Shown: positions 556-36,587, numbered from the stretch's first letter. The stretch: 64,000 nucleotides of DNA from Candidatus Doudnabacteria bacterium (GCA_037200925.1 JBBCGO010000001.1:317248-381247), one strand, 5' to 3'. A program made the numbers and translations. Notes: a model not told the origin generated them from the sequence alone.

Positions 556-1781
556 GATTTAGAGCCTTGATCGCCGGCAGTTGCTTGCCTGATAAAAATT
601 CCAGCATAGCCCCGCCGCCAGTGGAGACATGGTCCACGAATTGCGAAACTTTTGCCTGATCCACAACTTGGGCCGTCTCGCCGCCTCCGATCACTCCAAA
701 TGCGCGGCCTTTCGATCTTGAGGCAAAAATCAGGGCCAGGGCTTTGCTGCCATTGGCGTATCTTGGCTGTTCGATCAGGCCAAATGGCCCGTTCCAAACC
801 AAAGTTTTCGCCCCTTTGATAATACCGGCGAACTTGCGTATGCTTTTTGGCCCAATATCAAAAATGGATTCCTCAGGCCTGACCTTATCAATAGGTGTCA
901 CTCTGGCCCTTGCTTCCAAACTCGTGGCTACAACGATATCAACAGGCAAAACAATTTTATCTTTATAGTGCCTCAGCAGCTCGCGAGCAACTGCGATATC
1001 TGATGTTTTGGACTTACCCACTTCGTAGCCGTGAGCTTTCAGGAAAGTATTCGCCACTCCTCCGCCGACAATGATGTTGGATGCTTCTTTGGCCAGACTG
1101 TGGATCGTCCCGACCTTGTCTTCGATCTTGATCCCGCCGATCAGCATGACCAGCGGTTTCTGCGGATCCTTCATAACTTTTGAAAAAGACCGGATCTCTT
1201 TCATAAAAGAGAGCCCGGCGTAAGCCGGCAATTTTCTCGCCAAGCCGAAAGTCGAAGCTTCCCTCCGGTGAGCCATGGAAAAAGCTTCGTTGACAAAAAC
1301 ATCTCCAAAACCGGCCAGCAGGTCAATAAATCCTTCGCTATTGTCTTCTTCGCCTTTATAAAACCTCAGGTTTTCCAGAAATAAAATACTGCCTCCCGGC
1401 AGATCCCGGCTCATTTGGACGTAATCCGACTTCGTGATGTCTGCAGGCAGAAAATTGATATGCTGCACGGAATAATCAGGCAAGTGGTCTTTGATTTTTA
1501 CTACTTTTAAACCGAGTAATTCGCCAAGTTTTTCCGCGGCCGGCCAAAGACTTTTAGTATTTTTATGATGCCCGTCCGGCCGGTCGAGATGAGAGAGCAA
1601 AATAATTCTGGCTTTTTGCTTTATCAAATATTTCAAGGTCGGCAAAGCATCTTTGATCCGAGTATCATCCGCCACTTCCCATTGTTCGGTGTGGATATTT
1701 TTTTTTCAATGGCACATCAAATCCGGCGCGCAATATCACGCGCCGGTCTGTGACTTTGACGGATGAAATAGATTTTATCAT
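548..1781 (-). CDS. pgk: phosphoglycerate kinase, reading frame broken by +1 in a T9 homopolymer (1698-1706)
   Basis: Track ORF 548-1675 starts at ADDTRIKDALP..., which is mid-PGK. Upstream, in another frame, ATG at 1781 gives MIKSISSVKVTDRRVILRAGFDVPLKK, the PGK N-terminal motif. The two frames join if the A9/T9 run loses one base. The ATG overlaps the TGA of the upstream gene (ATGA). Confidence 0.8.
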
Positions 1782-2965
1782 TGAGTTTGCGATCCCGTCA
1801 CGATCACCCACCCGTTCGGCACGTCGCAGGGTGTGGGGAATTGTTTGACCTCTCCGGTCGCAGGATTCTTCGCAGTTGTAATTACTTGGATGCAGGCAAT
1901 CGGCTCATTGCTGATCGGCGATGTAAATCCAAAAGTGGAAAGGATCTGGCTTATTAGATCTTTTGTTCCTCCGGGTGCGCCAATCTCTAAATACTTATTT
2001 TGAACGGATATAGTGGCGGTTGGTATTCCCAAAACACTATCGTAGATCTTCGCACCGAGGCCATTGATCGCAGATTCAGCAACGTTGCTTTTCGACGCTA
2101 CCAATAATTGTTCTTCTGTGGTGAAAGCGGCTTGATTTGGAAAAATTTTCACATACAAAACATTGTTAGCAGTGGTTTGCGGAGGAGACTGCTGCTGTTT
2201 TATTGAGTTAAAGTTGATCCAGACAATCCCGGCTTTGTCGGTAGTTACGTCTCCTTCGCTCCAATCAACTGGGTATTTAAAGGCAATGCCGTATTTTGTA
2301 TTCGTATAAGTTTTCCAGGTGGAAGTATCTGCTGCCGCGCTTGGTTCAGTAAACTTGACATTAGAAACGATTTGGTCAAAATCTATATCAAACTTCGTAG
2401 GAGGTTTGGGGTAATTGATGTGAAATAGATCCGTTTTATTCAGCTGAACAATGACATGGAATTCGGATTGACCGGTTGAAGAATAATCCAATCGGATCGC
2501 CGGTTTTCCGCCGACAGTTATGTCTGTTTTTGGCAGTTGTTCAGGCGTAAGCTTAAAGGCAGCAAGCTGCTCTGTGTACCATTCATCCAACGGAAGGTTT
2601 TTTGGATTTCCGTTCGGCTCAACCTCAAACGTCACCAGCGAATTTGCCGCGGTTTGCGACGGTTCCAGGATGGAAATACTGTAAAACGTTCCTGTGCCCT
2701 CCAGCCCTACAAGCAATGTCGGCGGATATTTAAAACTAAACCCGTACTGAGAATTCGTATACGTTTTCCAGTCCGCTGTTGGGTCTTTGTGAACGACTGG
2801 TTGAGCCGGCGACGGGACGGAGATTGTTGATTGCCAATACCAGATGCCGGCTACAGCACATGCGCCTAAGACCAAAAGCGAAGCTATCACAGCAATGAAC
2901 TTTGGCGTGAAAGTTTTTTTAGGCGGCGAAATGTCCTGCTGTTGTTGTATTGGGGTTATTTCCAT
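1778..2965 (-). CDS. membrane-anchored secreted protein, YTN-motif family (two motif copies)
   Basis: N-terminal TM helix followed by YWQ, then DWKTYTNSQYGFSFKYP and a second TWKTYTNTKYGIAFKYPVDW. Paralog of 2985-4061, 6419-7402, 31110-31697 and 36021-36587. Confidence 0.6.
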   Translation of the reverse strand: MEITPIQQQQDISPPKKTFTPKFIAVIASLLVLGACAVAGIWYWQSTISVPSPAQPVVHKDPTADWKTYTNSQYGFSFKYPPTLLVGLEGTGTFYSISILEPSQTAANSLVTFEVEPNGNPKNLPLDEWYTEQLAAFKLTPEQLPKTDITVGGKPAIRLDYSSTGQSEFHVIVQLNKTDLFHINYPKPPTKFDIDFDQIVSNVKFTEPSAAADTSTWKTYTNTKYGIAFKYPVDWSEGDVTTDKAGIVWINFNSIKQQQSPPQTTANNVLYVKIFPNQAAFTTEEQLLVASKSNVAESAINGLGAKIYDSVLGIPTATISVQNKYLEIGAPGGTKDLISQILSTFGFTSPISNEPIACIQVITTAKNPATGEVKQFPTPCDVPNGWVIVTGSQTQ

Positions 2966-2984
2966 ATGGATGTGATGAATTTGA

Positions 2985-4061
2985 TCACTGCAGAAGTTTA
3001 AAATCCTTTATCCCTAAACCAAAAATATCTAAATAAACCGAGCATAAATAAGGCTCTTGGCTTTTAAAATTCGGGTCAATACAATCTGATCCGGGACTGG
3101 GAGGTTGTTGGATTTGTTTTTCAAATACATATTTACTATTCCTTCCCAACTCCTGGCCTTGATCGCAACCCGGTGTAGTTGCGCTTTGGCAAGCATCTTT
3201 CTTCCAACTGTTCAGAGGAGTAATAGCTATCCACCAAACAGCAAAATGGTCTGCTGTATCCTTTAACTTATGGTCGAGAGGTAATCCGAACATCAATATA
3301 GTTGTGTTAGGAAAAACTTGATCATCAGGACGAGGAGTTATTTCGTCGACCGTATATTTGGTCCAGCTATCAGGCATCGTCAGTTGAAATCCATATTTTG
3401 CGTTGGTATAAACTTTTGAGGTCAGAATAGTGCCAATGCTCGGAGTCGTAAACTTGAAAGTGGAAAGGATTTGGGTAAGAACCGGACTTAAATCCGTATC
3501 GCTTGGGTAAAGCTCTATTGTGTAGAATTTATTTTTGTACGGTGTATCCAAAAAAAGAGATTTGTGTTCAGCTCCTAGTCCTGTCGCGTCACGATGCGTA
3601 TTCCAATCGATTCCACCAATAGACATAGTGGGTCCGGCACCTTGAAAATTCTTAATCCCCGAATCTTCAGTCAAGCTTGAGGAAAATTCCGCATATGAAA
3701 AATCATTGTCGGATACTGTCTTAGTTACTTGTACTGTACTAAATTTTGTCAGTGGATTAGGATCGGCATTGCTTTCATCTGAAAGATTCCAGTCATTTGG
3801 ATACTTAAACTCAAACCCATACTGAGCATTCGTATAAGTTTGCCAGGTTGCCGTTGGATCGACCTTCACTTTATGCACCGGCAGATCGACTATGGCCGGG
3901 ATCTGCCTGACTGTCTGCCAATAATAAAGGCCCGCGACAATGGCAGCTAAAATCGCAAACAGAAAAACAAAACCCAAAATCATATGCCGGCTGAACCAAT
4001 TTTTCTTTACATCCGGATGGAAATTGAAATTAGGTTCATTTGATTGATTTTGCGGTTCCAT
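2985..4061 (-). CDS. membrane-anchored secreted protein, YTN-motif family
   Basis: TM helix then YYWQ, then TWQTYTNAQYGFEFKYPNDW; a second degenerate copy is KVYTNAKYGFQLTMPDSW. Confidence 0.6.
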   Translation of the reverse strand: MEPQNQSNEPNFNFHPDVKKNWFSRHMILGFVFLFAILAAIVAGLYYWQTVRQIPAIVDLPVHKVKVDPTATWQTYTNAQYGFEFKYPNDWNLSDESNADPNPLTKFSTVQVTKTVSDNDFSYAEFSSSLTEDSGIKNFQGAGPTMSIGGIDWNTHRDATGLGAEHKSLFLDTPYKNKFYTIELYPSDTDLSPVLTQILSTFKFTTPSIGTILTSKVYTNAKYGFQLTMPDSWTKYTVDEITPRPDDQVFPNTTILMFGLPLDHKLKDTADHFAVWWIAITPLNSWKKDACQSATTPGCDQGQELGRNSKYVFEKQIQQPPSPGSDCIDPNFKSQEPYLCSVYLDIFGLGIKDFKLLQ

Positions 4062-4065
4062 ATAT

Positions 4066-5128
<1,063 letters not shown>

Positions 5129-5263
5129 TTATTTCAATAATTGCAGCAGAAAAGCGACGATGAACAGCGCCCAAACGAGAAAAATGATAAATTCAATATT
5201 ATCTTCAAACAGAAAATAGCGATGAAGATGCTGGTCCAATGTTTTTCTTGTTTTTTTTGCCAT
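5129..5263 (-). CDS. hypothetical small membrane protein (44 aa)
   Basis: MAKKTRKTLDQHLHRYFLFEDNIEFIIFLVWALFIVAFLLQLLK, between gap and fba; not in the ORF track (below its size cutoff). Confidence 0.25.
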   Translation of the reverse strand: MAKKTRKTLDQHLHRYFLFEDNIEFIIFLVWALFIVAFLLQLLK

Positions 5264-5322
5264 ACGTTTTGATTAATTTTTTTAATTATTTTATTTAAGA
5301 TTTATTCCTCAAAGCAGTGATA

Positions 5323-6189
5323 TTACTGTATTCCGTTAAAAAGTTTCAACCTCCCTTCTACCACTTTTTCTATTGCATCTACGGCAGGTTGTAAAATTTT
5401 ATATGGAGCGATTTCGTCAGGATGTTCGGCTAAAGATTTTTTAAGCGCCTCGTCGTAGGCCACACGTATTTCAGTATTAATGTGGATAATTGAAATGCCC
5501 GCCTTGATCGCATTTGTAAAATCCACATCACGCAATCCTGAACCACCGTGCAATACGAGAGGCACGCCCGTTGCTTTTTTTATTTCTCCCACACGCTCTT
5601 CATTTATATGAGGTTTGCCGCTTTTTATGAGGCCATGGATGCTGCCGACAGATGGTGCGAGCATATCTGTGCCGGTCATTTCCACAAATTTCTTAGCATC
5701 TTCGGGTTTCGTCAGGATCCCGGCGCCTTCCGGTATGGTATCTTTTATATTTGACCCTGAACCGATAAACCCCAGCTCTGCTTCTACTAAAATATCTCTG
5801 CCGGTTTCCTGAATCACACTCTTGGCATATTCTACGGTTTGTTTTGTGATCTTTACATTTTCTTCGAAACTCAAATTTGCCAGATCTATGATCACGGCAT
5901 CGAAGCCCGCGTCAATCGCACTCTTTGCACGCTCAAAAGAATAATGATGATCAGCATTCAGGAAAATAGGGTAATTATCTTTCGCTCTAATCTGATTGAT
6001 CATCCCAACTGCTTCGTTCTTGCCGACAAAATCTTCCTCGCCTTCGGAGAGCCCGATAATGACGGGCACTGCCAGTTTTTTTGCAGCATTATAGATCCCG
6101 TGGAATCCTTCCAAATTTGAAATATTAAAATGTCCGATAGCAACGCCTTTTTCCTCGGCTTCTTTCACATATTCTCGCAATGTTTTCAT
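5323..6189 (-). CDS. fba: class II fructose-bisphosphate aldolase
   Basis: GHFNISNLEGF, PVIIGLSEGE, LNADHH and VLHGGSG motifs of class II FBA/tagatose-bisphosphate aldolases. Confidence 0.8.
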   Translation of the reverse strand: MKTLREYVKEAEEKGVAIGHFNISNLEGFHGIYNAAKKLAVPVIIGLSEGEEDFVGKNEAVGMINQIRAKDNYPIFLNADHHYSFERAKSAIDAGFDAVIIDLANLSFEENVKITKQTVEYAKSVIQETGRDILVEAELGFIGSGSNIKDTIPEGAGILTKPEDAKKFVEMTGTDMLAPSVGSIHGLIKSGKPHINEERVGEIKKATGVPLVLHGGSGLRDVDFTNAIKAGISIIHINTEIRVAYDEALKKSLAEHPDEIAPYKILQPAVDAIEKVVEGRLKLFNGIQ

Positions 6190-6196
6190 AAAAGAG

Positions 6197-6409
6197 TTAA
6201 AACCTTATACCTGCTTTAAGAATATCCCACAATCCCGGCAATGTGGCTTTATTATTTGTGGCCTGGCACAAAGCATAGACCACCTGATATTGGCAATTCC
6301 AGCCTTTGGATTCTATCAGCAGGCTTGTGACTCCGCGCCAATACAGGAACAGGACCACCACGATCGCCAGCAAAATAAGTTTTACTCTCATTTTTTTCTT
6401 CAGGTACAT
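6197..6409 (-). CDS. hypothetical small membrane protein
   Basis: 70-aa ORF with one TM helix; no recognisable domain. Confidence 0.3.
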   Translation of the reverse strand: MYLKKKMRVKLILLAIVVVLFLYWRGVTSLLIESKGWNCQYQVVYALCQATNNKATLPGLWDILKAGIRF

Positions 6410-6418
6410 ATTAATGAT

Positions 6419-7402
6419 TTATCGGATGCCGGTATCGATATTGAAATCCGAAGTTGTAGTCTGGCCGGATTTGATAGTGACTGTGCCGACTGTCATACTG
6501 AGCTGGTCAACTCGCATTCCGCTGGCCTTCAGGGTGTATGTGCCTGCGGGCAGGGAAAATTTGTAATTTCCGTTTCCATCAAGGTGCTGGCTTGCGACCA
6601 AGCCGTTATTGCCAAAAACACCGACTTGTCGCGCCATATTCATCTCTGGCGTAGCCTGGCACGGATGGCCCGCTTGCTCCACGGGACAGATCGGCCCGAT
6701 CGTCACATGTCCCAAAAGCGTTCCCATTGACGAGGTTGATGAATTTGGATCACTAAATTTAAAAGTCTTTAGCATTTCATCCAATCGTTTCCAAACAGCA
6801 TTCGCATCAACTTCCGCCACTGCCCCGGGGGTGTAGTTGCCGATGTTGGCAATTCCGATGGTCTGACTGACTTCCATACAATCTTGGCCATGAAAAACCC
6901 GGTAAATTCTGGTTTGATAGTTCGTCCCGGCCGCTCCTTGGTTTTCATCGGATTCATGGAATATCACACCGTTAACTTCATACGTCTTAGCCGCGGCAAT
7001 GCAGTTTGATTCTGAACTTTGCGGCTGGACTGCAACCGTCAGATTGGCCGAACCAAAATTAGTTTTCGGATAAAGGCTTTGCGGGAGCACCGCGCTGATC
7101 AAGCTTTTGGCCGCATGTTTGAAGAAATTTGCCTGGTTGCCGGACGTATCAAGATCATAATTTTTATCATAATTAAACTGGAAACCATATTCGGTGTTCG
7201 TGTAAGTTCCGGTTTTCGGCGCCAGATGCATTGGCTGCATAAAATCTCCCGGGATCGGCTGGTAAGCCATTTGCCAATAATAGATCAGGCTGACTGCGGC
7301 TGCGAAAGCCAGTAAAACAAATAGAATTCCTAAAAATCTGAATTTCATTTGTTCATCTTCTTTTTGTGAAGCTTTGTGAATTTTATTTTTGGGGTTTGCC
7401 AT
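6419..7402 (-). CDS. membrane-anchored secreted protein, YTN-motif family, with C-terminal beta-sandwich-like tail
   Basis: TM helix, then YYWQ, then GTYTNTEYGFQFNYDKNY. C-terminus GTYTLKASGMRVDQLSMTVGTVTIKSGQTTTSDFNI resembles a carboxypeptidase-regulatory/Ig-like fold. Confidence 0.55.
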   Translation of the reverse strand: MANPKNKIHKASQKEDEQMKFRFLGILFVLLAFAAAVSLIYYWQMAYQPIPGDFMQPMHLAPKTGTYTNTEYGFQFNYDKNYDLDTSGNQANFFKHAAKSLISAVLPQSLYPKTNFGSANLTVAVQPQSSESNCIAAAKTYEVNGVIFHESDENQGAAGTNYQTRIYRVFHGQDCMEVSQTIGIANIGNYTPGAVAEVDANAVWKRLDEMLKTFKFSDPNSSTSSMGTLLGHVTIGPICPVEQAGHPCQATPEMNMARQVGVFGNNGLVASQHLDGNGNYKFSLPAGTYTLKASGMRVDQLSMTVGTVTIKSGQTTTSDFNIDTGIR

Positions 7403-7419
7403 GTTATTTAATATTTATT

Positions 7420-8409
7420 CTACAATAAAACAAGTTCTCTGGCTCTGAATTTTGGATGTGTTTTAAGATATGCTTCGATCTGCGGCTTGGACTGGAGGCC
7501 TTTGTGGGGGCCCACGAACTGCACCACGTGTCCGCCGTTGACAGTGCCCCACGCGATCGCTTCCTCTATCGGCTTGCCGTAAAAGATGGCGGATGTGAAG
7601 GCAGTGCCGTAAGCATCTCCTGCTCCGGTGGCTTCGATGTGCGGACCGATAAATTCATCCATGAACCAGACCTTGGGCGAGCCGTCTGAGGCGTATGATC
7701 CGGCCCGGCCATCGGTGATGACGGCTATCTTGGCGCCCAATTTATGCATTCCTTTCAGCAACGTTTTGACATTTCTGGTCTGATGCTTTAAGACCAATTG
7801 AGCCTCTTCGCGGTTGAGGAACAAAATTTCGGTCCGTTTATATATCCCTTTCAACTTTTCCGTACCCATGCGCATCTGAAAAGTGCCCGGATTGAAAGAC
7901 AATTTGATCTTCGGATTTTTCACTAAAAATCTCTCCAATTCCTTGTTAAATTTCTCTGTGCCGGCGGCCATTGATGAAAAATAGATCCATTTGGTATCAA
8001 GTTTATGAGGCAATTTATAGAGAAATTTGTTGTGTTTGATCAGGATAGTGCGCTCGCCCTGGAACGAAAGCACAAAATGAAAATTGGTCTGTGCGCCCTT
8101 ATTGATGTGGATAAACCGGGTGTCGATGCCTTCTTCCGTCAGCTCTCTGATGATCTTTTGCCCGCTTTCATCATCGCCGACCGAGGTGACAAAGGCGTCT
8201 TTCATGCCCAATCTGGTCGAGCCAACTGCATTGTTTGTGGAGTTGCCGGCCGGCAGCAGGGTCAAAGTGTCATAAGGGATCTTGTCCGCAAAAGACATGC
8301 AAAGCTGGCAATTCGTATGGTCCACCGCGCAATGCACAGAAGCTTCATGCAATTGGATGAAGGCATCAATGGTCGCATCCCCGATTGAAACTATGTCGTA
8401 TTTGGCCAT
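7420..8409 (-). CDS. PfkB/ribokinase-family carbohydrate kinase
   Basis: N-terminal IVSIGDATIDAF and C-terminal ATGAGDAYGTAFTSAIFYG (PfkB signature 2). Sits in the glycolytic cluster. Confidence 0.7.
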   Translation of the reverse strand: MAKYDIVSIGDATIDAFIQLHEASVHCAVDHTNCQLCMSFADKIPYDTLTLLPAGNSTNNAVGSTRLGMKDAFVTSVGDDESGQKIIRELTEEGIDTRFIHINKGAQTNFHFVLSFQGERTILIKHNKFLYKLPHKLDTKWIYFSSMAAGTEKFNKELERFLVKNPKIKLSFNPGTFQMRMGTEKLKGIYKRTEILFLNREEAQLVLKHQTRNVKTLLKGMHKLGAKIAVITDGRAGSYASDGSPKVWFMDEFIGPHIEATGAGDAYGTAFTSAIFYGKPIEEAIAWGTVNGGHVVQFVGPHKGLQSKPQIEAYLKTHPKFRARELVLL

Positions 8410-8471
8410 TTTTTGTTTCCTAATGTTATTTTTACTTCTTTATTATAATGAATTGTTAATTTTTTGTAAAA

Positions 8472-8504
8472 TTAAAAGCCCCTCTTCAATATGAGGGCTT
8501 TTGG
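8472..8504. terminator. bidirectional intrinsic terminator hairpin
   Basis: AAGCCCCTC-ttcaatat-GAGGGCTT flanked by an A-run and a T-run, downstream of 8512-10287. Confidence 0.5.
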
Positions 8505-8511
8505 GACTAGG

Positions 8512-10936: not shown

Positions 10937-10937
10937 A

Positions 10938-17295: not shown

Positions 17296-18287
17296 TAGGG
17301 CTGTCTGTAAAGGTCGGCCGCCGCTTCCGGCATCACGGTATTCACATAAACGTCAGAACCCAATTCAAACCCACCCCAGACATTCAGGCGCGGCATGATC
17401 TCCAGGTGCCAATGGTAGCTGCGCACGTCATACTGCGTCCGCGGCGAATGCGATACGGGCAGGGTGTGGATGTAATAATTGTAAGCCGGATCAAAAAGTT
17501 TATAATAGATCTTTTGCAAAACGATTTTGAGCACGCGCGTCAAGGAGCTGCGCTGACTGTCGGTCATTTCAAAAAAATTCGCCTGGTGGGTTTTCGGAAG
17601 GATCCGCAGGGCATATGGAACTCTGGCCGCAAAAGGAGAAAGCACCAAAAAATCCTCGTCATCCAAAACCAATCTTGTCGGCTCGGATAATTCTTTAAGG
17701 ATCAACTCGCAAAAAATACAGGCGCCTGTTGCCATAAAAAAATGATGGCTGCTTAAGACCTCGTCATGCAGATGCTCCGGGACGAACGGCGTGGCAAAGA
17801 TCTGAGAATGGGGATGAATGACTGACGCACCGCCCTCATGTCCGTGATTTTGCAGGATATGGACATACTGGACCTCAGGATGATCAGACAGCGTAAGCAT
17901 CCGGCTCTGGTAGACTTCAAGGCATAAATTCAAAAGTTTGTCAGGCAAAAAACCCGTCAGGACATTGTGCGGCCTGGTGATGATGACCTCATGATCCCCG
18001 ATCCCTTCGCGTACGCGATAAAAATCGTGCCGTTCGCGGCCGCCAAAATGGCCTAATGCTTCAAACTTATTGGGTATTACGCGGACTTGCCAATTTTTTC
18101 CGACCGGCCGTGATAAAATTTCCTGATTCAAATTTTCCTGCCCGGGACAAAACGGGCAAGTTTTGTCGTGCTCAGGTAAAGTTGCCGGAAAAGCCGGAGG
18201 ATGCTTAAAATCCTCAGGGCGCGTGGACCTGTTCGGCGCAAAAAGCACCCAGTGTTTGGAGACTATGTCTTGTCGGAACTCACTCAA
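17295..18287 (-). CDS. GalT-family nucleotidyltransferase (galactose-1-phosphate uridylyltransferase-like)
   Basis: CPFCPGQE zinc motif and HPHSQIF (HxHxQ) active site. Confidence 0.65.
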   Translation of the reverse strand: MSEFRQDIVSKHWVLFAPNRSTRPEDFKHPPAFPATLPEHDKTCPFCPGQENLNQEILSRPVGKNWQVRVIPNKFEALGHFGGRERHDFYRVREGIGDHEVIITRPHNVLTGFLPDKLLNLCLEVYQSRMLTLSDHPEVQYVHILQNHGHEGGASVIHPHSQIFATPFVPEHLHDEVLSSHHFFMATGACIFCELILKELSEPTRLVLDDEDFLVLSPFAARVPYALRILPKTHQANFFEMTDSQRSSLTRVLKIVLQKIYYKLFDPAYNYYIHTLPVSHSPRTQYDVRSYHWHLEIMPRLNVWGGFELGSDVYVNTVMPEAAADLYRQP

Positions 18288-18801
18288 AATGGAATGTTAA
18301 TTGTAACTGCCGGACAAAGGCATCCGTGCCGCGGATAACGTACAATTTATTTCCGTGCAAAGCCAAAATTACCGTTTCTGAATGACCCATGCCTAGATCA
18401 TTGGCGATTTTCTGCGCCGGCATATCGTCAAGCTGAGTGCTGACCTCGCTCGAAATTTTCAGGGTTTTGCGGATGGCTTTTTCTGAATCAGGGCTGGTGA
18501 CCTCGACAGTAACCCCCTCATCCGAATTAGTGCTCGGCACAAAAGTGATCGCGGAATTACTATCAGCTTCAATGGACCAATCCGCAGGGTAACGCACGTC
18601 AAAGCCCAGACGGGAATCTTTGTAGTTGTGCCACGGATAAAATGTATTTTCCGCAACCTGGGCTTCAAAACTTACATCCGTAACTTTGATATATCCGACC
18701 AGTGCGACCGTGACGATCACGGCGTAGGCGATCGTCCATATCAGCCATCGATTAGGATGGATTACAATTTTATGTATTTTGCTTAATTTCGTTTTGGCCA
18801 T
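18280..18801 (-). CDS. membrane-anchored secreted protein, distant YTN-family member
   Basis: TM helix then YPWHNYKDSRLGFDVRYPADW. Confidence 0.5.
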   Translation of the reverse strand: MAKTKLSKIHKIVIHPNRWLIWTIAYAVIVTVALVGYIKVTDVSFEAQVAENTFYPWHNYKDSRLGFDVRYPADWSIEADSNSAITFVPSTNSDEGVTVEVTSPDSEKAIRKTLKISSEVSTQLDDMPAQKIANDLGMGHSETVILALHGNKLYVIRGTDAFVRQLQLTFHFE

Positions 18802-26950: not shown

Positions 26951-26954
26951 ATAT

Positions 26955-27494: not shown

Positions 27495-27498
27495 ATGA

Positions 27499-28181: not shown

Positions 28182-28193
28182 GGATCTAAATAA

Positions 28194-28442: not shown

Positions 28443-28614
28443 TCATTAAGGTTAAAATTCGGGCAATGTCGCGCTTTACGGCTTTGAGCATATGGTTATT
28501 CTTCACTTCGCGCGAGTGCAGCTTGAAAGACAGGTCCCGCACCTGCTCCCGCAGGGTGGCTAGCGTTTTTACCAATTCAGCCTGGCCCATTACTTGTAAT
28601 TCCTTGATCTTCAT
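28432..28614 (-). CDS. rpmC: 50S ribosomal protein L29
   Basis: MKIKELQVMGQAELVKTLATLREQ... Confidence 0.85.
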   Translation of the reverse strand: MKIKELQVMGQAELVKTLATLREQVRDLSFKLHSREVKNNHMLKAVKRDIARILTLMNAK

Positions 28615-28618
28615 AAGA

Positions 28619-29032
28619 TTATGCCTGATTCCTTAATACAAATTTAGTCTTGATTGGCAATTTATGAGAGGCCAACCGCATGGCTTCAGCCGCCTGATCT
28701 GACGTAACCCCATCCATCTCGAACATCACGCGCCCTTTTTGCACTACCGCCACAAAGTGATCCACCGCGCCTTTGCCGCCGCCCATGGGCGATTCGTTGC
28801 CGTGAGAAGTAATGGGTTTATCCGGAAAGATCCGGATCCAGATCTTGCCGCCGCGCTGAATATATCTGGTCATGGCTCGCCTAGCCGCTTCTATCTGGCG
28901 GCTGGTGACCCAGCTGTTTTCCATGGCTTTCAATCCAAAACTTCCAAATGCCACAAAGTTGCCGGACATGGATTTGCCGGAGGAGCGCCCTCTGTGATGC
29001 TTTCTGTGCTTAACTTTTTTCGGGATCAGCAT
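28619..29032 (-). CDS. rplP: 50S ribosomal protein L16
   Basis: [16 protein letters not shown]... Confidence 0.9.
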
Positions 29033-29035
29033 AAA

Positions 29036-29698
29036 TTATTCGCCTTTCAGCTTAAGCTTCTTGCCGTCAAAAACTTCGCCTTTATTGATCCAAACCTTCA
29101 CGCCTATGGTGCCATAGGTGGTAAATGCCGTAACTCTGGCAAAATCAATATTGGCGCGCAAAGTATGCAGTGGCAATTTGCCTTTGAACAACCGTTCACT
29201 GCGGGCAATTTCCGCGCCGCCCAGTCTTCCCGCGCATTCTATCTTAACGCCCAAAGCCCCGGCTTCCATGACCTGCTCTATCGCGCCTTTCATGGCGCGG
29301 CGGAAGGCGATGCGCTTTTCGATCTGGTCCACGATATTCTGCGCCACAACCTGGGCCTGCAGATTCATGTCTTTGACTTCTTCAATATTGATCTTCATGT
29401 CCAATTTCTTCAGCTCCAGATTCTTCAGGATCTTTTTCTTCAGATCTTCAATGCCGGCCCCGCCTTTGCCGATGATCATGCCCGGCTTGGTGGTTTTCAC
29501 TGTGACGATCAGGTTCTGGCCGAATCGCTCAATATCAATCCTGACCAAACCGGCGCGGCGCAATTCTTGCATCAGAAAAGCGCGGATCCGGGTATCCTGC
29601 TGGAGTTTCGCGGCAAAACCGGTCTTGGCCAGCCATTTGGATTTCCAAGTTTCGGTAATGTTCAGTCTTAAACTGTTGGCATTAACTTTCTGTCCCAT
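29036..29698 (-). CDS. rpsC: 30S ribosomal protein S3
   Basis: MGQKVNANSLRLNITETW... KH domain. Confidence 0.9.
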   Translation of the reverse strand: MGQKVNANSLRLNITETWKSKWLAKTGFAAKLQQDTRIRAFLMQELRRAGLVRIDIERFGQNLIVTVKTTKPGMIIGKGGAGIEDLKKKILKNLELKKLDMKINIEEVKDMNLQAQVVAQNIVDQIEKRIAFRRAMKGAIEQVMEAGALGVKIECAGRLGGAEIARSERLFKGKLPLHTLRANIDFARVTAFTTYGTIGVKVWINKGEVFDGKKLKLKGE

Positions 29699-29699
29699 A

Positions 29700-30281
29700 T
29701 TATTCTCCGCTCTTTCTGTTAAATAACCGGCGCTTCAAAGACACTATATTCTGCTTGAGCTTTTCAGAAGGCCTCGGAGCCTGTTTGGCCTTGGTCTTTA
29801 TAGCCTGTACTTCACCGGCTTTAGGCTGTTCTATCTGGCCTGTGTGCGGCTCTTTTACTTCCGGCGCTGCGGCCCTTGGCCTCAAAGAGAAAATTGACCG
29901 GGTTTGCTTGGATTTGGCCCGCTCGCGGGATTCCAAAACAACATTGATATGGCTGGTGCGCTTGCGCTCCACAAATGCCCGGCCCTGGGCTCTGGGTGCA
30001 TAGCGTTTGAATACCGGGCCTTGGTCTATGGTCACGGCTTTTACGAATAAATTTTCTTTTTTCAGGTCAAAATTATGCACGGCATTGGCCACAGCTGAAT
30101 TGATGGCTTTGGTCAGGGGCAAAGCGGCATTCTTGGAAGAAAACCGGAGCTGTTCTAAGGCCACATCCACAGGAGTCCTTCGGATAAGGTCCGCCACAAG
30201 TCGAAGCTTGCGCGGAGACACATGGATGTATCTGGCGAATGCTTTGACCTCTTTAACTTTTGATAAATCTTGTTTAGCCAT
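29700..30281 (-). CDS. rplV: 50S ribosomal protein L22 with long basic C-terminal extension
   Basis: L22 core plus an approximately 80-aa lysine/alanine/proline-rich tail. Confidence 0.85.
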   Translation of the reverse strand: MAKQDLSKVKEVKAFARYIHVSPRKLRLVADLIRRTPVDVALEQLRFSSKNAALPLTKAINSAVANAVHNFDLKKENLFVKAVTIDQGPVFKRYAPRAQGRAFVERKRTSHINVVLESRERAKSKQTRSIFSLRPRAAAPEVKEPHTGQIEQPKAGEVQAIKTKAKQAPRPSEKLKQNIVSLKRRLFNRKSGE

Positions 30282-30308
30282 AATTATTTCTTAGGAGCAG
30301 CAGCTGGT

Positions 30309-30632
30309 TCAGCTTTTGCAGCTTCCAATGACCGTTTTTTCCGCTTCCTGGGCCGCAATCGCCTCTTCTTTGGCCATGCGTCCGCCGTGTCTGACGAATT
30401 TGCGGCTTGGTGAAAACTCGCCTAATTTGTGCCCGACCATGTTTTCCGAACAATGCACGGTTATAAAATTCTTGCCGTTGTGAACAAGGAAAGTCAGGCC
30501 TACCATTTCGGGAAAAATAGTGGAGTCGCGCGACCAGGTCTTGATCTCAACTTTCTGCCCAGGCCGAACCTTCTGGATCTTCTCCAGAAGTTTAGGATCT
30601 ATAAATGGTCCTTTTTTCAGTGATCGTGACAT
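30309..30632 (-). CDS. rpsS: 30S ribosomal protein S19
   Basis: [12 protein letters not shown]...[18 protein letters not shown]. Confidence 0.9.
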
Positions 30633-30635
30633 ATA

Positions 30636-31091
30636 TTAATTAGTAGATTTATTTGGATCAGGACCGCAAATGATATGTCCCGGGATACTCTGGGTTGTTC
30701 CGATCGGCACTTGTCCGGCAGGACATGGCCCGGGTGACGGGATCGGCGCTGGCGCTTCCGCACCAACTGGTGTTTGATCAGCAAGAGTAATTGTGGAAAC
30801 AGCAATGGTTCCTTCTCCTTGCTGACAAGTGCTCATTTCTTGCAAAGTACCTTTAATATCCACCGCATCACCTGTTTTGAATCCGGCAAGATTGCCTGTC
30901 AAAGTGTATTGTTTGCCGTCATCGGTTTGGAACAATTGGCATTCAGCGCCACCTGCTATTAACTTCCCGCTGAAAGAAGTTCCATTGCCTGGCTGATTTC
31001 CAGGCCCAACAGGTGCCTGTTTGTTGCAAGCTGCGGCTATTAAAATAATAGCCGGGATCAGGATAATTAATTTTTTCAGCGATCGTGACAT
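30636..31091 (-). CDS. lipoprotein inserted in the S10 operon; N-terminus MSRSLKK duplicated from rpsS
   Basis: MSRSLKKLIILIPAIILIAAAC (lipobox LIAAAC). Gene flanked by 24-bp direct repeats 30612-30635 and 31071-31094. Confidence 0.65.
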   Translation of the reverse strand: MSRSLKKLIILIPAIILIAAACNKQAPVGPGNQPGNGTSFSGKLIAGGAECQLFQTDDGKQYTLTGNLAGFKTGDAVDIKGTLQEMSTCQQGEGTIAVSTITLADQTPVGAEAPAPIPSPGPCPAGQVPIGTTQSIPGHIICGPDPNKSTN

Positions 31092-31109
31092 GTAATGCTT
31101 AATTTGGAT

Positions 31110-31697
31110 TTAATTGTTCTTGTCAGGAGGACATGGCTTGCCCATGTTCGGATCACAAGGATTTAGGCCATTAAGGTTGTTCTGATTTGCTTGAGATTGA
31201 GTAAATTTGAAAGTGGAAATTATCTGTTTGAATTCAGCGATCTTATCATTATTTTTCCCGTCAAAAGTTATAAACCTTACTTCTATGGCAGCGCCGGTGC
31301 TGGACTGGAAAGTAACCTCATATGAGATCCCTCCTGTTGGAGAGGCTGTCACTACCGGGGATTCATAAGCCGTAATTCCATTTACTTTGGTCTTATTTGG
31401 TATGTTTGCGAAATTCTTGTTCAAAAGGAAATCCATCGTGGAATAAGCTGAAGAAAAAGCCGGAGCCTGGGTACTGCCAAACATGCTGACCACATTCTTT
31501 GAAACGCTGTAATTGGAAGGGTACATTATCTGAAATCCATATTGAGCGTTCGTATACGTCTGCCAATCAGCCATTGAAACCGTTGAAGGAGCCGGTTGTT
31601 GTGTTTGCTGATTTTGGGCAGGTTGAACAGCCGCTTGTTGGTTGCAGGCCGCGGCCACTAATATTATTGAAGCTGTAACTGCCAGGATCTTTTTCAT
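31110..31697 (-). CDS. lipoprotein, YTN-motif family
   Basis: MKKILAVTASIILVAAAC lipobox, then DWQTYTNAQYGFQIMYPSNY. Confidence 0.65.
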   Translation of the reverse strand: MKKILAVTASIILVAAACNQQAAVQPAQNQQTQQPAPSTVSMADWQTYTNAQYGFQIMYPSNYSVSKNVVSMFGSTQAPAFSSAYSTMDFLLNKNFANIPNKTKVNGITAYESPVVTASPTGGISYEVTFQSSTGAAIEVRFITFDGKNNDKIAEFKQIISTFKFTQSQANQNNLNGLNPCDPNMGKPCPPDKNN

Positions 31698-31698
31698 A

Positions 31699-32340
31699 TT
31701 ATTTTTGTTTAATTTCTAATGTTTTAATTATATTGGTCATATCAATAAGCGCGGTGTTCAAACTTGCGCTGCCCTTCACGGGCAAACTGTTCACGTCCTT
31801 TGAATTATAAGCCATTGTCACTACCAAACCGGGAGGCTGATCATCTGTGTAATAATTGAAGTAGCCATTTCTGCTGTCCGTCAGATAAGAAAAATACCAA
31901 ACAGTAGAACCATTGGTCGGAACATTACAGTAATCTTTTTTGTCAGCAGCGGCAACATACAGATCCGCTCGGGAATAGTCATCAAATGCCGGATTTTTTT
32001 CTGAAGTCCCGCAGGGAGGGCTTGGCTGTTCGGTCACAACAGCATCAGCGCTTGGCGCCCCCATGGCAATTTCCGCAAAACGACCTCCCTCAACACCGCT
32101 GGCTTGTGAAGCCTGAGTGTTAACATAAAGAATATAGTTTCCCTTGGTAATATTGACCGCTGCGGAATTTGAACCGGCCTGAGCGGCTGTCCATCCGGCA
32201 GGGATCGTGATTTTCATGAATTGATTTTCGTAAACCTGGCTCTGTGGCGGCGGAGGTGGAGTAGGCTGAACAGCCGCTTGTTTGTTGCAAGCCGCGGCAA
32301 GTAGCAAAATTCCGATTGTAGCTACAAAAATCTTTTTCAT
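31699..32340 (-). CDS. lipoprotein, hypothetical
   Basis: MKKIFVATIGILLLAAACNKQAAVQP lipobox. The leader is near-identical to those of neighbours 31110-31697 and 36021-36587. Confidence 0.6.
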   Translation of the reverse strand: MKKIFVATIGILLLAAACNKQAAVQPTPPPPPQSQVYENQFMKITIPAGWTAAQAGSNSAAVNITKGNYILYVNTQASQASGVEGGRFAEIAMGAPSADAVVTEQPSPPCGTSEKNPAFDDYSRADLYVAAADKKDYCNVPTNGSTVWYFSYLTDSRNGYFNYYTDDQPPGLVVTMAYNSKDVNSLPVKGSASLNTALIDMTNIIKTLEIKQK

Positions 32341-32344
32341 AAAA

Positions 32345-33175
32345 TTATTTTTCCCGTCTCTTAACTATAAACTTATTAGATTTCTTTTTATCTCGTGTCT
32401 TTACGCCCAAAGCGTGTTTGCCCCACGGGGTTTTCGGGTATTTCAAACCGATAGGATTATGCCCTTCGCCCCCGCCGTGCGGGTGGTCTATCGGGTTCAT
32501 GGCCTTGCCGCGGACCGAAGGCCGGACTCCCATGTGGCGGACTCTCCCTGCCTTGCCGATCCGCACATACATCCAGTCAGTGTTGGAAACCTGTCCGATC
32601 GTGGCGTACGATTTGACCGGTACTTTGCGAAGCTCGCTGGAAGGCAGTTTCAGAGTCGTGTAATCCGGCTCCTGGGCAGCGACGATTGCATATGTTCCGG
32701 CAGATCTGGCGAGCAAGCCTCCCTGCCCGCCCAAAATTTCCACATTATGGACATTAGTGCCGAGGGGGATGTGTTTGAGCATCATGCGGTTTCCCGGCTT
32801 GATCTCCGCGCGTTCGGAAGTCACCAGAACTTCGCCCATCTTTACTCCGTCAGGTGCGAGAATGTACCGTCTTTCGCCGTCGCGGTAAGCCAAAAGGGAA
32901 ATGAACGCCGAACGGCCCGGATCGTATTCCAAAGTTTTGACGATTGCCGGAATATCCATCTTGTCGCGCTTAAAATCTATCAGGCGGTTTATCTGCTTAT
33001 GCCCGCCGCCCTGGTGGCGGATAGTGATCTTACCCTGGTTGTTGCGACCCGCGGTGCGGGCGGCTGATCGCATCAAAGATTTCACGGGTTTGGAATTTTT
33101 GGTCAAAACCGAATAATCCGTCACGGAATGGATGCGGCGGCCGGGTGAAGTTGGTTTGTAAATCTTGATAGCCAT
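32345..33175 (-). CDS. rplB: 50S ribosomal protein L2
   Basis: Canonical L2 (GRNNQGKITIRHQGGGHK...). Confidence 0.9.
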   Translation of the reverse strand: MAIKIYKPTSPGRRIHSVTDYSVLTKNSKPVKSLMRSAARTAGRNNQGKITIRHQGGGHKQINRLIDFKRDKMDIPAIVKTLEYDPGRSAFISLLAYRDGERRYILAPDGVKMGEVLVTSERAEIKPGNRMMLKHIPLGTNVHNVEILGGQGGLLARSAGTYAIVAAQEPDYTTLKLPSSELRKVPVKSYATIGQVSNTDWMYVRIGKAGRVRHMGVRPSVRGKAMNPIDHPHGGGEGHNPIGLKYPKTPWGKHALGVKTRDKKKSNKFIVKRREK

Positions 33176-33176
33176 A

Positions 33177-33599
33177 TTATACTCCTTCGGATAATCCTGC
33201 TATCCGTTCTCCGCTCTTTAAAGTAACTATTGCTTTCTTCCAATCCTGGGTTCTTCCCACTGACTTGCCTTGGCGGCGGTTCTTGCCGGAAACATTTATC
33301 ATATTGACCGCAGAGACATGCACGTCATATACAGCCTCAACCGCTTTTTTGACCTCTATCTTATTGGCGGTCTTGGCTACTTTGAAAACATATCGGCCGA
33401 TGGAGGAAAACTGGTTGGTTTTTTCCGACAAATGATAACGATGCAGAATATGATGCGCACGACCCGTGTTTTCTTTCAAAACAGTCGGCGTTGAATCGGT
33501 CTTTCCTGCAACAGGTTCTTTGACCAAATCCAAAACATTGTCCTCTTTCGGGGCTTTCTTGCTGCCTTGTTTGCTTTTAAATCTGTCTAAGAGCGCCAT
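33177..33599 (-). CDS. rplW: 50S ribosomal protein L23 (with N-terminal extension)
   Basis: L23 core in the canonical position. Confidence 0.8.
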   Translation of the reverse strand: MALLDRFKSKQGSKKAPKEDNVLDLVKEPVAGKTDSTPTVLKENTGRAHHILHRYHLSEKTNQFSSIGRYVFKVAKTANKIEVKKAVEAVYDVHVSAVNMINVSGKNRRQGKSVGRTQDWKKAIVTLKSGERIAGLSEGV

Positions 33600-33603
33600 A
33601 TCA

Positions 33604-34245
33604 TTAAACTTTTAAATACGTTTTCTCAATAATTGGCAACGCATCTTTCAAAACCAATACATCATGCTTCAAAAGATCCAAAACATTCAGCCGATCGGCG
33701 TATAGGACTTTCACATTTTCCAGATTTCGCGCAGCCCGTTCCAGGTCTTTATTATGCGTGGCCAGAACCAGCAAATATTTCTTGCCGAACTCGGCTTTGC
33801 CGGCAACAACCGCCAGTTTTGCCGCCAGTTCTTTCGATTTGGCGGTATTATCAAAACTTTCCACGATAACTAACTTATGCTCATTGACCTTGTCGGTCAA
33901 AACGCTGAACATTGCTTTTCTTTGGGCTGACTTGTTCATTTTCAAGGACCAATTGCGGGCGCTGGTCGGGCCAAAAGTGACTCCGCCGTGCCGCCAAATA
34001 GGCGAACGGACCGAGCCGGCTCTGGCGCGTCCGGTGCCTTTTTGCTTCCACGGCTTTTTGCCGGAACCGGCTACCTCGCCGCGGTTTTTCGTATGGGCGA
34101 TCGACCGGCGGGCGTTATTTCTCTGCGTTCGCACAGCCGAGTGGACCAGATTACCGTCAATTTTTTCAATGCCAAAGATCTTCGGATTCAGGTCCAGTTC
34201 CGTTACTTTTTCGCCTGTTTGGTTGTAGACTGATGTTTTTGCCAT
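33604..34245 (-). CDS. rplD: 50S ribosomal protein L4
   Basis: Canonical L4. Confidence 0.85.
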   Translation of the reverse strand: MAKTSVYNQTGEKVTELDLNPKIFGIEKIDGNLVHSAVRTQRNNARRSIAHTKNRGEVAGSGKKPWKQKGTGRARAGSVRSPIWRHGGVTFGPTSARNWSLKMNKSAQRKAMFSVLTDKVNEHKLVIVESFDNTAKSKELAAKLAVVAGKAEFGKKYLLVLATHNKDLERAARNLENVKVLYADRLNVLDLLKHDVLVLKDALPIIEKTYLKV

Positions 34246-34246
34246 A

Positions 34247-34840
34247 TTAGTTCCTAATCAAATTAGGGCAATCAGTAAACACACCGTCTATCTGAAATTC
34301 TTTAAGCTTTTCAAATCTTTCCCGGTCATTTACTGTCCAGATGAAGATCTTTTTATTCAGCTTTTTCAGATACTCGATCGTGATCCTGTTGCAAAAAAAC
34401 GATTTTGGATGAATGGAATAAAGCTGCAGAGTGCGGTCCAGCTTCGGAATGAGCGGAAGAAGAAAAAAATTCTCTCCCAGTATCAGCCCGAGTTTGATAT
34501 TTTCATCCAAACTTCTGATCTTCTTCAGTATCGACGGATACTTGGAGGAAACCAGAACTTCAGAGGAAAAATTCTTAAGCAATTCTACGAGCTGGGTTTC
34601 AAAACCCGTCTCTTTAACTTCCAGGTTCAGCGCAACCTTCGCGACCCGAAGCAGTTCTTCCAAGGTTGCCGGCTGGTTGTGTTTGTTCAAAAAATTATGG
34701 CACAGAACGATCTGGCCGTCGGAATTGAGGCGCAAGTCGGTTTCAAGCATGTCCACTCCCAGCTCCTGCGCTTTTTGAAAAGAACGGATAGTATTCTCAG
34801 GTTCCAGGCTTGGCGCTCCTCTGTGTCCTATTATTAGCAT
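34247..34840 (-). CDS. glycerophosphodiester phosphodiesterase (GDPD family), inserted between rplC and rplD
   Basis: MLIIGHRGAPSLEPENTIRSFQKAQELGVDMLETDLRLNSDGQIVLCHN - the GDPD catalytic motifs HRG...ENT...E.D. Confidence 0.75.
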   Translation of the reverse strand: MLIIGHRGAPSLEPENTIRSFQKAQELGVDMLETDLRLNSDGQIVLCHNFLNKHNQPATLEELLRVAKVALNLEVKETGFETQLVELLKNFSSEVLVSSKYPSILKKIRSLDENIKLGLILGENFFLLPLIPKLDRTLQLYSIHPKSFFCNRITIEYLKKLNKKIFIWTVNDRERFEKLKEFQIDGVFTDCPNLIRN

Positions 34841-34898
34841 AAATATTGAATTTTGATTTTAGTTTTTAACCTGTCGCGCATGATCGTCAACGTTGTTA

Positions 34899-35504
34899 CT
34901 AACTCTGCGTCTGGATCCTGACTATACCGCCGTTTGCGCCCGGAACCGCTCCTTTCACTGCTATCAGATTTCTCTTGAGGTCCACATCCACGACTTCCAG
35001 ATTGATGACTGTCCGCACGCCGCCCATGCGTCCGGCCATATGCAAACCTTTTCTGACATGCTGGGGAAACCTGCCGCCGATGGCGCCCACGGCTCTCGGA
35101 TGGTCATGGCCGTGGGAAGCCGGCGCGCCTTTGAACCTGTAACGCTTGATCGGTCCTGCAAATCCCCGGCCTTTCATTTCTGCCGTAACTTTCACCTTGT
35201 CGCCGACGGCAAACGCGTCAACTTTTATCTCCTGGCCTTTTTCAAAACTGTCTTTTTCGGAAATTCTGAATTCCGCCAAAGTTTTAAATGCGCCCGCCTC
35301 TTTGCCGTGCCCTAGTTCTGCTTTGTTTGCGTTCTTCTTCTTGCCAAACCCAACCTGCACGGCCTGGTATTTGTCTTTATCCAAGGTTTTGACCTGCACG
35401 ACTTTGACCGGTCCTGCCAAAAGAATGGTTACGGGCACGACCTTGCCGTCTTTCGTGAACATCTGCGACATATTCAGTTTTTCAGCGAGAATGAATTTGG
35501 ACAT
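34899..35504 (-). CDS. rplC: 50S ribosomal protein L3
   Basis: Canonical L3. Confidence 0.9.
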   Translation of the reverse strand: MSKFILAEKLNMSQMFTKDGKVVPVTILLAGPVKVVQVKTLDKDKYQAVQVGFGKKKNANKAELGHGKEAGAFKTLAEFRISEKDSFEKGQEIKVDAFAVGDKVKVTAEMKGRGFAGPIKRYRFKGAPASHGHDHPRAVGAIGGRFPQHVRKGLHMAGRMGGVRTVINLEVVDVDLKRNLIAVKGAVPGANGGIVRIQTQS

Positions 35505-35510
35505 AAATTT

Positions 35511-35563
35511 GGCTTAAAGAAAAACCATTCAGATCCCAGAAAGCTTCAGAAACCTGAATGGTT
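35511..35563 (-). terminator. terminator/attenuator-like hairpin plus U-run between rpsJ and rplC
   Basis: Minus strand: AACCATTCAG-(21 nt)-CTGAATGGTT followed by TTTTCTTT, immediately upstream of the rplC start. Confidence 0.4.
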
Positions 35564-35618
35564 CTTCTTCGTTGGCGATTTCCGGGAGGATCTATCCAAC
35601 ATACACTATTATAATTTT

Positions 35619-35945
35619 TTACATTTTGATCTCTATATCCACTCCTGCCGGCAAATTCAGATTACTTAATGCATCAATTGTTTTCGGCGTAGGAGAAGCA
35701 ATATCTATCAGGCGCTTATGAATGCGCATCTCAAACTGCTCGCGGGCATTCTTATGCACGAAGGTCGAGCGGTTCACGGTATACTTTGTCTTTTCAGTCG
35801 GAAGCGGAACAGGCCCGATGACCGCAGCGCCTGTTCGCTTGGCAGTTTCTACGATCTGCTTCGCGGACTGGTCTATCAGCTTATGGTCATAAGCCCGGAT
35901 CTTGATCCTTATTCTGCCTTTATTCTCGTCAGTATCTTGCGCCAT
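35619..35945 (-). CDS. rpsJ: 30S ribosomal protein S10
   Basis: Canonical S10. Confidence 0.9.
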
Positions 35946-36020
35946 CTGGTTTGTAAATATTACTTAACGCTCTTGTTAAAATACACATTTTCGAAGGGTT
36001 TGTCAACACCGGAAGGGATG

Positions 36021-36587
36021 TTATTTGGTAAATTTAACACTGGCCAGAATATAGTTTAATATTTGATCGTTCGTGGAATTTTTAAATCTGTTATCATAAG
36101 AAATCGCCAAGTAATTGTTAGCTGAAAAAGGAATCGAGATAAGTTGTTCCTTCGCGTCCGAAATACTGGTCGCTTGCTTGCCGCCGACGGTCAATTGCGT
36201 AGGGTTCCCTAATTTGCTTAAATTTCCCGTACCATTACCAACACTAAGCGAAAATATACAAACCGCCGAGGCCAAATTCTGCGGGTCAAAACAAGATTTT
36301 GATTCACTGACCAGCTTTAATCCCGAAACAAAAAGTGGGGATGGCTGCATAATTTCCATTTGTAAGCTTGTCGGATACTTGAACTCAAATCCATATTGCG
36401 CATTGGTATAAGTTTTCCAACCTGCTGTCGGGTCAGTTGTGGGGGCAGGGGCTGGTGCAGGAGTTTGAGTTACCGGCTGCGGGGCGGGAGCGGGCTGAAC
36501 AGCCGCCTGATTGTTGCAAGCCGCGGCGAGGAGCAAAACTGCTGATGTAATTACTAGAATCTTCTTCATAACTTCCAACCTAACCAA
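36021..36587 (-). CDS. lipoprotein, YTN-motif family, inserted between tuf and rpsJ
   Basis: Likely start MKKILVITSAVLLLAAAC at 36569, then GWKTYTNAQYGFEFKYPTSL. Confidence 0.65.
   Translation of the reverse strand: MVRLEVMKKILVITSAVLLLAAACNNQAAVQPAPAPQPVTQTPAPAPAPTTDPTAGWKTYTNAQYGFEFKYPTSLQMEIMQPSPLFVSGLKLVSESKSCFDPQNLASAVCIFSLSVGNGTGNLSKLGNPTQLTVGGKQATSISDAKEQLISIPFSANNYLAISYDNRFKNSTNDQILNYILASVKFTK

Follow-up and report, generated by a model that had tools for sequence, protein, structure and literature searches.

Six open reading frames (ORFs) on the minus strand of a 64,000-nucleotide stretch of DNA from Candidatus Doudnabacteria bacterium (GCA_037200925.1, JBBCGO010000001.1:317248-381247; hereafter the window) encode members of the PsbP_2 family (PF18933) of the Mog1/PsbP superfamily. 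The ORFs are A (1778-2965), B (2985-4061), C (6419-7402), D (18280-18801), E (31110-31697) and F (36021-36587); all features described below lie on the minus strand unless otherwise noted, as do most genes of the window, whose GC content is approximately 46-49%. The six were first grouped by an earlier reading of the DNA (the original prediction) through a shared motif, W-x-TYTN-x-x-YGF-x-F-x-YP-x-x-W, and were found at the positions given there. They do form the family of paralogs that it proposed, whose members are extracytoplasmic and either anchored or lipidated, but the family is of an already named and functionally uncharacterised kind. Taken as a whole, the data are best explained if these PsbP_2 proteins are membrane-tethered, non-catalytic docking modules with partners in the cell envelope, a reading that we consider reasonably probable.

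Matches to PsbP_2 above the Pfam gathering cut-off of 27 bits were obtained for ORF A (49.7 bits, in two stretches) and ORF B (31.2 bits). ORFs E (20.3 bits, E = 6e-4), F (19.8 bits) and D (18.3 bits, together with 20.6 bits for PsbP, PF01789, for which the cut-off is 23.5 bits) scored below threshold, and Pfam gave no PsbP_2 match for ORF C. To judge the weaker members independently, a profile hidden Markov model (HMM) was built from proteins outside the window, namely 72 full modules cut from 53 homologs with a precomputed PF18933 annotation. This external model matched all six ORFs across the full module, with E-values of 1.1e-44 for A (two full-length domains), 4.1e-32 for B, 3.4e-20 for F, 4.2e-19 for E and 5.7e-13 for D. 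ORF C was recovered at E = 6.3e-11 over HMM positions 8-152 of 153, while the next-best ORF of the window had E > 1. The annotated external proteins thus form one continuous family with all six ORFs, and the hairpin motif and the C-terminal strand described below correspond to the two ends of the Pfam model. ORF D is identical to a public protein (P0003) that carries the NCBI name 'PsbP-related protein [Candidatus Doudnabacteria bacterium]', the source organism being placed in the candidate phylum Doudnaibacteriota in the NCBI taxonomy. Furthermore, a distant homolog with six modules (P0212) scored 214 bits for PsbP_2, 119 for PsbP and 57 for DcrB, which ties the clade firmly to the Mog1/PsbP superfamily. 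The W-x-TYTN clade is under-detected by the Pfam model: since C, D, E and F fall under the cut-off and many homologs are likewise sub-threshold, it is under-annotated, and more than half of the retrieved homologs lacked a precomputed Pfam annotation. The motif, to which the original prediction could attach no domain name, accordingly belongs to a known domain, PF18933 PsbP_2, but one with no characterised function outside photosynthesis; PF18933 itself is a family without an experimentally assigned function.

The motif occurs in the six ORFs as seven full modules and one degenerate copy. In a six-frame regular-expression search of the window, the full block was matched in A (two copies), B, E and F, so that its near-identity, originally claimed for C as well, holds for these four; the motif of ORF C, GTYTNTEYGFQFNYDKNY, is without the W and the P. 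ORF D, originally set apart as more distant, carries a looser variant, WHNYKDSRLGFDVRYPADW, and a degenerate second copy in ORF B, KVYTNAKYGFQLTMPDSW, had been overlooked. A degenerate DNA pattern for TYTN-xx-YG(F/I) occurred six times, against 0.00 expected from 100 shuffles. Because the six copies differ from each other at synonymous positions, it is selection on the protein, and no recent duplication, that maintains the motif. For the same reason, and because the paralogs can barely be aligned outside the motif, a recent origin of the identity by duplication or gene conversion was rejected.

Leave-one-out HMMs recovered every module at E-values between 5e-16 and 7e-6 (ORF C at 7e-7), and an HMM of the seven modules revealed no further family members among the 609 ORFs of the window. 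Once the motif was trimmed the scores collapsed and almost nothing detectable was left; the detectable similarity therefore resides mostly in the first ~25 and the last ~10 residues (ILSTFKFT) of a module of ~140 residues. Likewise, in an alignment of 558 modules conservation was limited to the hairpin, one Gly and the C-terminal ILSTFKFT, and no candidate catalytic constellation was seen. The W-x-TYTN-x-x-YGF-x-F-x-YP-x-x-W block is the first, N-terminal beta-hairpin of the PsbP fold, and ILSTFKFT comprises the end of the last helix and the final strand of the module. Both are structural framework, with the rest free to vary.

As no PDB sequence matched the seven-module profile at E ≤ 10, the link to a fold required structure prediction. 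In an AlphaFold2 model of ORF B (92 sequences, mean predicted local distance difference test, pLDDT, 71.7), both halves run from a beta-hairpin through strands and a helix, then four more strands, to another helix and a last strand. When the model was compared with the PDB using Foldseek, the top 16 matches were all PsbP, CyanoP or PnsL (an NDH lumenal PsbP-like subunit), with probabilities of 0.99-1.00, E-values of 1e-3 to 3e-2 and template modelling (TM) scores of 0.4-0.5 on the target. The next matches (PA0094/EagT6, BT_1490, LpqN, Apa, Tsi3 and DcrB) all belong to the same superfamily. The modelled structure of ORF B thus shows a PsbP-type alpha/beta fold with an N-terminal hairpin, a central antiparallel sheet and flanking helices; the original prediction was right to suggest a check for PsbP-like folds. 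From sequence homology, ORFs A and C-F are predicted to adopt the same fold.

The best structural matches of B (2lnj, 1v2b and 2xb3) are to CyanoP/PsbP, the extrinsic lumenal subunit or assembly factor of photosystem II (PSII), and the shared first hairpin gives weak PF01789 matches at model positions 2-28. CyanoP is moreover a lipoprotein on the extracytoplasmic (lumenal) side, as would be the case for E and F. The window proteins are nevertheless different from PsbP proper. Sequence identity is ~16%, the best PF01789 score is 22.7 bits (B) where 23.5 are needed, and scores against the NCBIfam PSII_PsbP equivalog (NF040946) were 12-24 bits against a cut-off of 60, with a best value of 24.3 (B). 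Photosynthesis genes were not seen within the 64-kb window (of a ~964-kb genome). Doudnabacteria are non-photosynthetic bacteria of the Candidate Phyla Radiation (CPR), and a PSII partner is therefore not expected.

Extracytoplasmic tethering is predicted for all six proteins from their N-terminal sequences. In ORFs A, B and C, a basic N-terminus leads into a single transmembrane helix that terminates in (W/Y)YWQ, and a short linker connects this to one or more modules; these are the three members for which an order of helix, YYWQ, linker and motif had been described. ORF A (395 aa) has its anchor at 2834-2902, ending in GIWYWQ, followed by the PsbP-like modules A1 (2345-2785) and A2 (1916-2329) and by a two-Cys mini-domain at the C-terminus (1799-1897). 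In ORF B (358 aa) the anchor (3918-3986, GLYYWQ) precedes module B1 (3438-3860) and a divergent module B2 (2988-3437), which retains only the hairpin motif KVYTNAKYGFQLTMPDSW and which hhalign aligned to the module profile over 22 residues only. ORF C (327 aa) combines an anchor (7274-7342, LIYYWQ) and module C1 (6719-7228) with a C-terminal CarboxypepD_reg-like beta-sandwich (6440-6610), sub-threshold in Pfam (PF13620, 25.1 bits, under the cut-off of 32.3). ORF D (173 aa) consists of a transmembrane helix (18688-18750) and a divergent module D1 (18283-18651), which runs from WHNYKDSRLGFDVRYPADW to LQLTFHFE.

ORFs E and F were rightly described as lipoproteins with the same leader: both have an MKKIL...AAAC leader and Q/P/A-rich linkers. 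ORF E encodes a 195-aa lipoprotein with signal and lipobox MKKILAVTASIILVAAAC at 31644-31697, a Q/P-rich linker and module E1 (31164-31583). In ORF F the signal MKKILVITSAVLLLAAAC spans 36516-36569 and is followed by a P/A-rich linker and module F1 (36024-36437). The leaders of E (ending VAAAC), F and the neighbouring ORF G described below (both LAAAC) match the lipobox pattern [LVI][ASTVI][GAS]C with the Cys at position 18, at which lipidation is predicted, and Pfam gave a weak LPAM_1 lipobox match for F. The start of F is likely the ATG at 36569, giving 36021-36569 and 182 aa, not the TTG at 36587 of the ORF list: the ATG yields a canonical leader that matches those of E and G, whereas the public gene call (P0001, 171 aa, MLLAAAC...) begins at an internal TTG inside the signal peptide and truncates the leader.

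The mini-domain of ORF A comprises ~33 residues of the form C-IQVIT-x-A-K-N-x-x-TGE-x-K-x-FPTPCDVP-x-GW, has no Pfam match, and was found nearly unchanged, in C-terminal or internal position, in 14 matches (10 fetched homologs, three ORFs from homologous loci and ORF A itself).

The clade to which the six ORFs belong is very large. Searching 1.84 billion proteins with the module profile returned 13,773 cluster representatives (50% identity) at E ≤ 1e-3 and 1,651 at E ≤ 1e-10, and the 343 homologs that were fetched contain one to six modules per protein. Named sources of homologs are nearly all CPR (Doudna-, Yanofsky-, Staskawicz-, Berkel- and Nomurabacteria, Paceibacterota, Microgenomates). 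Species genomes of GTDB were also scanned with a degenerate DNA pattern for the exact motif, giving at least 120 loci, a sample and not a census. Among the matches listed, most loci are CPR, and the remainder include lipoproteins of ~175 aa from Nostoc, Tolypothrix, Scytonema and Aulosira as well as Chloroflexota and a few metagenome-assembled genomes (MAGs) labelled proteobacteria; 109 of 124 motif-bearing ORFs have an N-terminal hydrophobic anchor. Domains fused to the modules in homologs are Ig-like, CARDB, CarboxypepD_reg, Germane and fervidolysin-prodomain-like, none of them enzymatic. In two loci from other CPR genomes (L012 and L021) a Cys-rich segment, C-x-x-D-[VA]-K-x-CPDG-[ST]-x-V-x-R-x-P-P-x-C-x-F-x-x-CP, stands between the transmembrane anchor and the first PsbP-like module. 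No publication on this PsbP-like clade in CPR, Patescibacteria or Saccharibacteria, or on PF18933/PsbP_2, was found in the literature searched.

Within Doudnabacteria, the genes have a conserved placement in housekeeping operons, with gaps of 0-20 nt to the flanking genes. A and B occupy the interval from gap (4066-4989) to pgk (548-1675), where gaps are 5 and 19 nt, and C is flanked by fba (5323-6189, next to which is a 70-aa ORF) and by a gene for a PfkB kinase (7420-8409). D is located between ruvX and a galT-like gene, F between tuf and rpsJ, and E inside the S10 ribosomal operon, in a block of three lipoprotein genes between rplB and rpsS with gaps of 1-19 nt. The orders gap-B-A-pgk and pfkB-C-fba are kept in four other Doudnabacteria loci, one of which reads pfkB-C-small ORF-fba-gap-B-like-A-like-pgk (L001), with partial conservation of the same order in the other three (L040, L101 and L104). 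For the S10 operon, one locus (L045) reads rplC-GDPD-rplD-rplW-rplB-[PsbP-like lipoprotein]-rpsS, and a second (L032) has the same order up to the lipoprotein. The PsbP-like orthologs are only 25-54% identical, against 75-98% for the neighbouring gap, rplB and tuf, which points to fast evolution. These observations also bear on the description of an expanded surface family in a minimal genome. The genome is indeed small (a 964,444-bp contig of a Candidatus Doudnabacteria MAG), but 'expanded' is misleading, as the paralogs are old and very divergent, occupy positions conserved across Doudnabacteria and belong to a clade found also in free-living Nostocales and Chloroflexota.

Each protein thus places one or two alpha/beta modules of ~140 residues on the outer face of the cytoplasmic membrane, with a flexible P/Q/T/A-rich linker behind the predicted tether, which in A-D is a signal-anchor helix at the N-terminus and in E and F a Cys carrying a lipid. 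We propose that the modules act as non-catalytic binding or docking units, presumably expressed constitutively together with the housekeeping operons. Their probable targets would be envelope machinery, embedded in the membrane or associated with the wall, at its extracytoplasmic face, each paralog probably having its own partner. This mode of action would resemble that of CyanoP, DcrB and LpqN, the lipoproteins of other bacteria that come closest in architecture. DcrB (PF08786) and LpqN, of Enterobacteria and Mycobacterium and linked to envelope biogenesis, are single-module, lipid-anchored, extracytoplasmic and non-catalytic proteins of the same fold (6e8a, 6e5d), which is the architecture of E, F and G; this group has been linked to membrane-anchored complexes (PMC7716261). 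In contrast, A-D use a transmembrane anchor and tandem modules, and none of the six ORFs matched PF08786 at E ≤ 1, the only such match being that of the distant homolog P0212 mentioned above.

Several observations weigh against the docking proposal. The modules show no evident conserved patch on their surface. The Foldseek E-values are marginal (~1e-3) at TM scores of 0.4-0.5, and confidence in the B model is no more than moderate (pLDDT 71.7), although the ranking of the matches is uniform and agrees with the sequence assignment. A BLAST comparison of all locus ORFs with the window genes revealed no recurrent functional neighbour outside Doudnabacteria among the 120 loci listed, and in a compact genome the proximity to housekeeping genes may be without functional significance. 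Since recurrence among these loci is confined to Doudnabacteria, a link of the whole family to glycolysis or to ribosomal operons was rejected. Finally, two features of the homologs, the fusions to Ig-like, CARDB, CarboxypepD_reg and Germane domains and, in Yanofskybacteria, a location after secY-adk-map-sortase-large surface protein (800 aa), fit surface display or adhesion equally well.

An alternative, which the latter features would fit, is that the proteins are adhesins or ligand receptors whose variable module faces bind host-cell surface molecules or external substrates, in keeping with an episymbiotic lifestyle, which we regard as possible but rather unlikely. It would account for extracytoplasmic, tethered proteins of one to six modules, for the hypervariability of everything outside the framework and for the overwhelming presence of the clade in CPR genomes among the GTDB matches listed; Apa of M. 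tuberculosis, a relative in fold, has moreover been described as a fibronectin-binding protein. However, linkers of 15-35 residues are short and would keep the modules near the membrane and not past a wall or S-layer, the six window proteins have no sortase signal or wall-anchor, and the loci are syntenic housekeeping operons and not variable or phase-variable ones. The exact motif is also present in free-living Nostoc, Tolypothrix, Scytonema and Chloroflexota, so the clade is not tied to symbiosis. The suggestion of host attachment or substrate binding in the original prediction is thus possible but has gained no specific support, with no transporter neighbours and with housekeeping operons in place of variable surface-protein loci. 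Substrate binding in the form of solute-binding or nutrient-capture proteins that feed transporters, tied functionally to the adjacent glycolysis genes, appears very improbable. The embedding of A, B and C in a conserved pfkB-fba-gap-pgk cluster and the annotation of LpqN, a relative in fold, as a lipid-binding protein would fit it, but the fold is not the periplasmic-binding-protein fold and no ABC or other transporter genes adjoin any of the six ORFs, which together make solute binding unlikely; the glycolysis linkage is in addition limited to Doudnabacteria among the loci compared, and D, E and F stand in unrelated contexts.

The same fold serves as adaptor or immunity protein in polymorphic-toxin systems (PMC3482391). 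The modules could also be immunity-like neutralisers that bind and block envelope-targeting toxins or lytic enzymes of competitors or hosts, in the manner of the periplasmic Tsi3, TplEi and PA3488 (Tli4_C), but this is highly unlikely. The likeness to these type VI secretion system (T6SS) immunity lipoproteins and to the Eag chaperones (DUF1795) is confined to the fold and does not extend to the sequence; the Eag chaperones are moreover cytoplasmic proteins, unlike the window proteins, for which export is predicted. Beside the six ORFs there are no toxin, effector, T6SS or other secretion-system genes, the neighbours being pgk, gap, fba, pfkB, galT-like, ruvX, tuf and ribosomal protein genes, and the stably orthologous positions are unlike typical polyimmunity islands.

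The S10 operon of the window (30636-34840) is interrupted by non-ribosomal genes, namely a GDPD-family gene (34247-34840) between rplC and rplD and the three lipoprotein genes between rplB and rpsS, which are ORF G (31699-32340), ORF E and a gene for a DUF5818 protein (30636-31091). Both the GDPD insertion and the presence of a PsbP-like lipoprotein after rplB are kept in the two other Doudnabacteria-related genomes described above (L045 and L032). Between tuf and F, a perfect 16-bp stem with a 3-nt loop was found at 36586-36620, with a run of T on the plus strand and one of A on the opposite strand; this hairpin may be a terminator or attenuator that divides tuf from F and the S10 operon. A promoter-like site, TTGACA-17-TATTTT (36006-35978), lies upstream of rpsJ at the 3' end of F. 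In the glycolytic cluster, the 70-aa ORF between fba and C (6197-6409) has one hydrophobic helix; proteins 48-72% identical to it are encoded at the same position in two Doudnabacteria loci (L040 and L101), and a third (L001) has a 69-aa gene there.

ORF G, which adjoins E and was not on the original list, encodes a 213-aa lipoprotein with a leader of the E/F type. HMM searches and hhalign showed no sequence similarity between G and the family. Its AlphaFold2 model is confident (pLDDT 87.0, predicted TM score 0.80) and has a Mog1/PsbP-superfamily fold, so that G is linked to the family by modelled structure only. G has 241 homologs with full-length identities of 55-67%, among them proteins of Candidatus Angelobacter and Terriglobales (Acidobacteriota), which are found in ordinary acidobacterial contexts. 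Homologs with the CPR-type AAACN leader are more diverse (mean identity 62%) than the others (76%), and rooting of a neighbour-joining tree of the G homologs gave no direction of transfer. A stereotyped leader, LLAAACN(K/Q/N)QA(A/P)V, is common to four lipoproteins of the window, F (36516-36569), E (31644-31697), G (32287-32340) and the DUF5818 protein (31020-31091), and is thus carried also by two neighbours outside the family. The DNA of E, F and G is nearly the same over ~35 nt around the lipobox, although the mature parts are unrelated in sequence, and the same leader is present on Doudnabacteria orthologs of G but not on the acidobacterial ones. A more far-reaching interpretation is that the W-x-TYTN clade is a diversified, CPR-wide repertoire of membrane-tethered recognition modules, with variable faces for recognition of partners or hosts or for neutralising envelope-attacking enzymes; in that case G, which Doudnabacteria and soil Acidobacteria share at ~60% identity, would be a sign of gene exchange with a host lineage. 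We consider this quite unlikely.

In combination, these results replace an 'unknown motif' by a named domain, PsbP_2, and otherwise change little. They do show that Pfam under-calls a very large, mostly CPR clade (~13,800 clusters), and the family itself is of no greater interest than the lipoprotein genes in the S10 operon and the occurrence of G in Acidobacteria as well. As a class of envelope proteins in uncultivated, ultra-small bacteria, the family is well defined, abundant and probably expressed at high levels. Its conserved placement in the S10 ribosomal operon and the glycolysis cluster provides a handle for expression and metaproteomic work, and partners, if found, could inform on the organisation of the CPR cell envelope.

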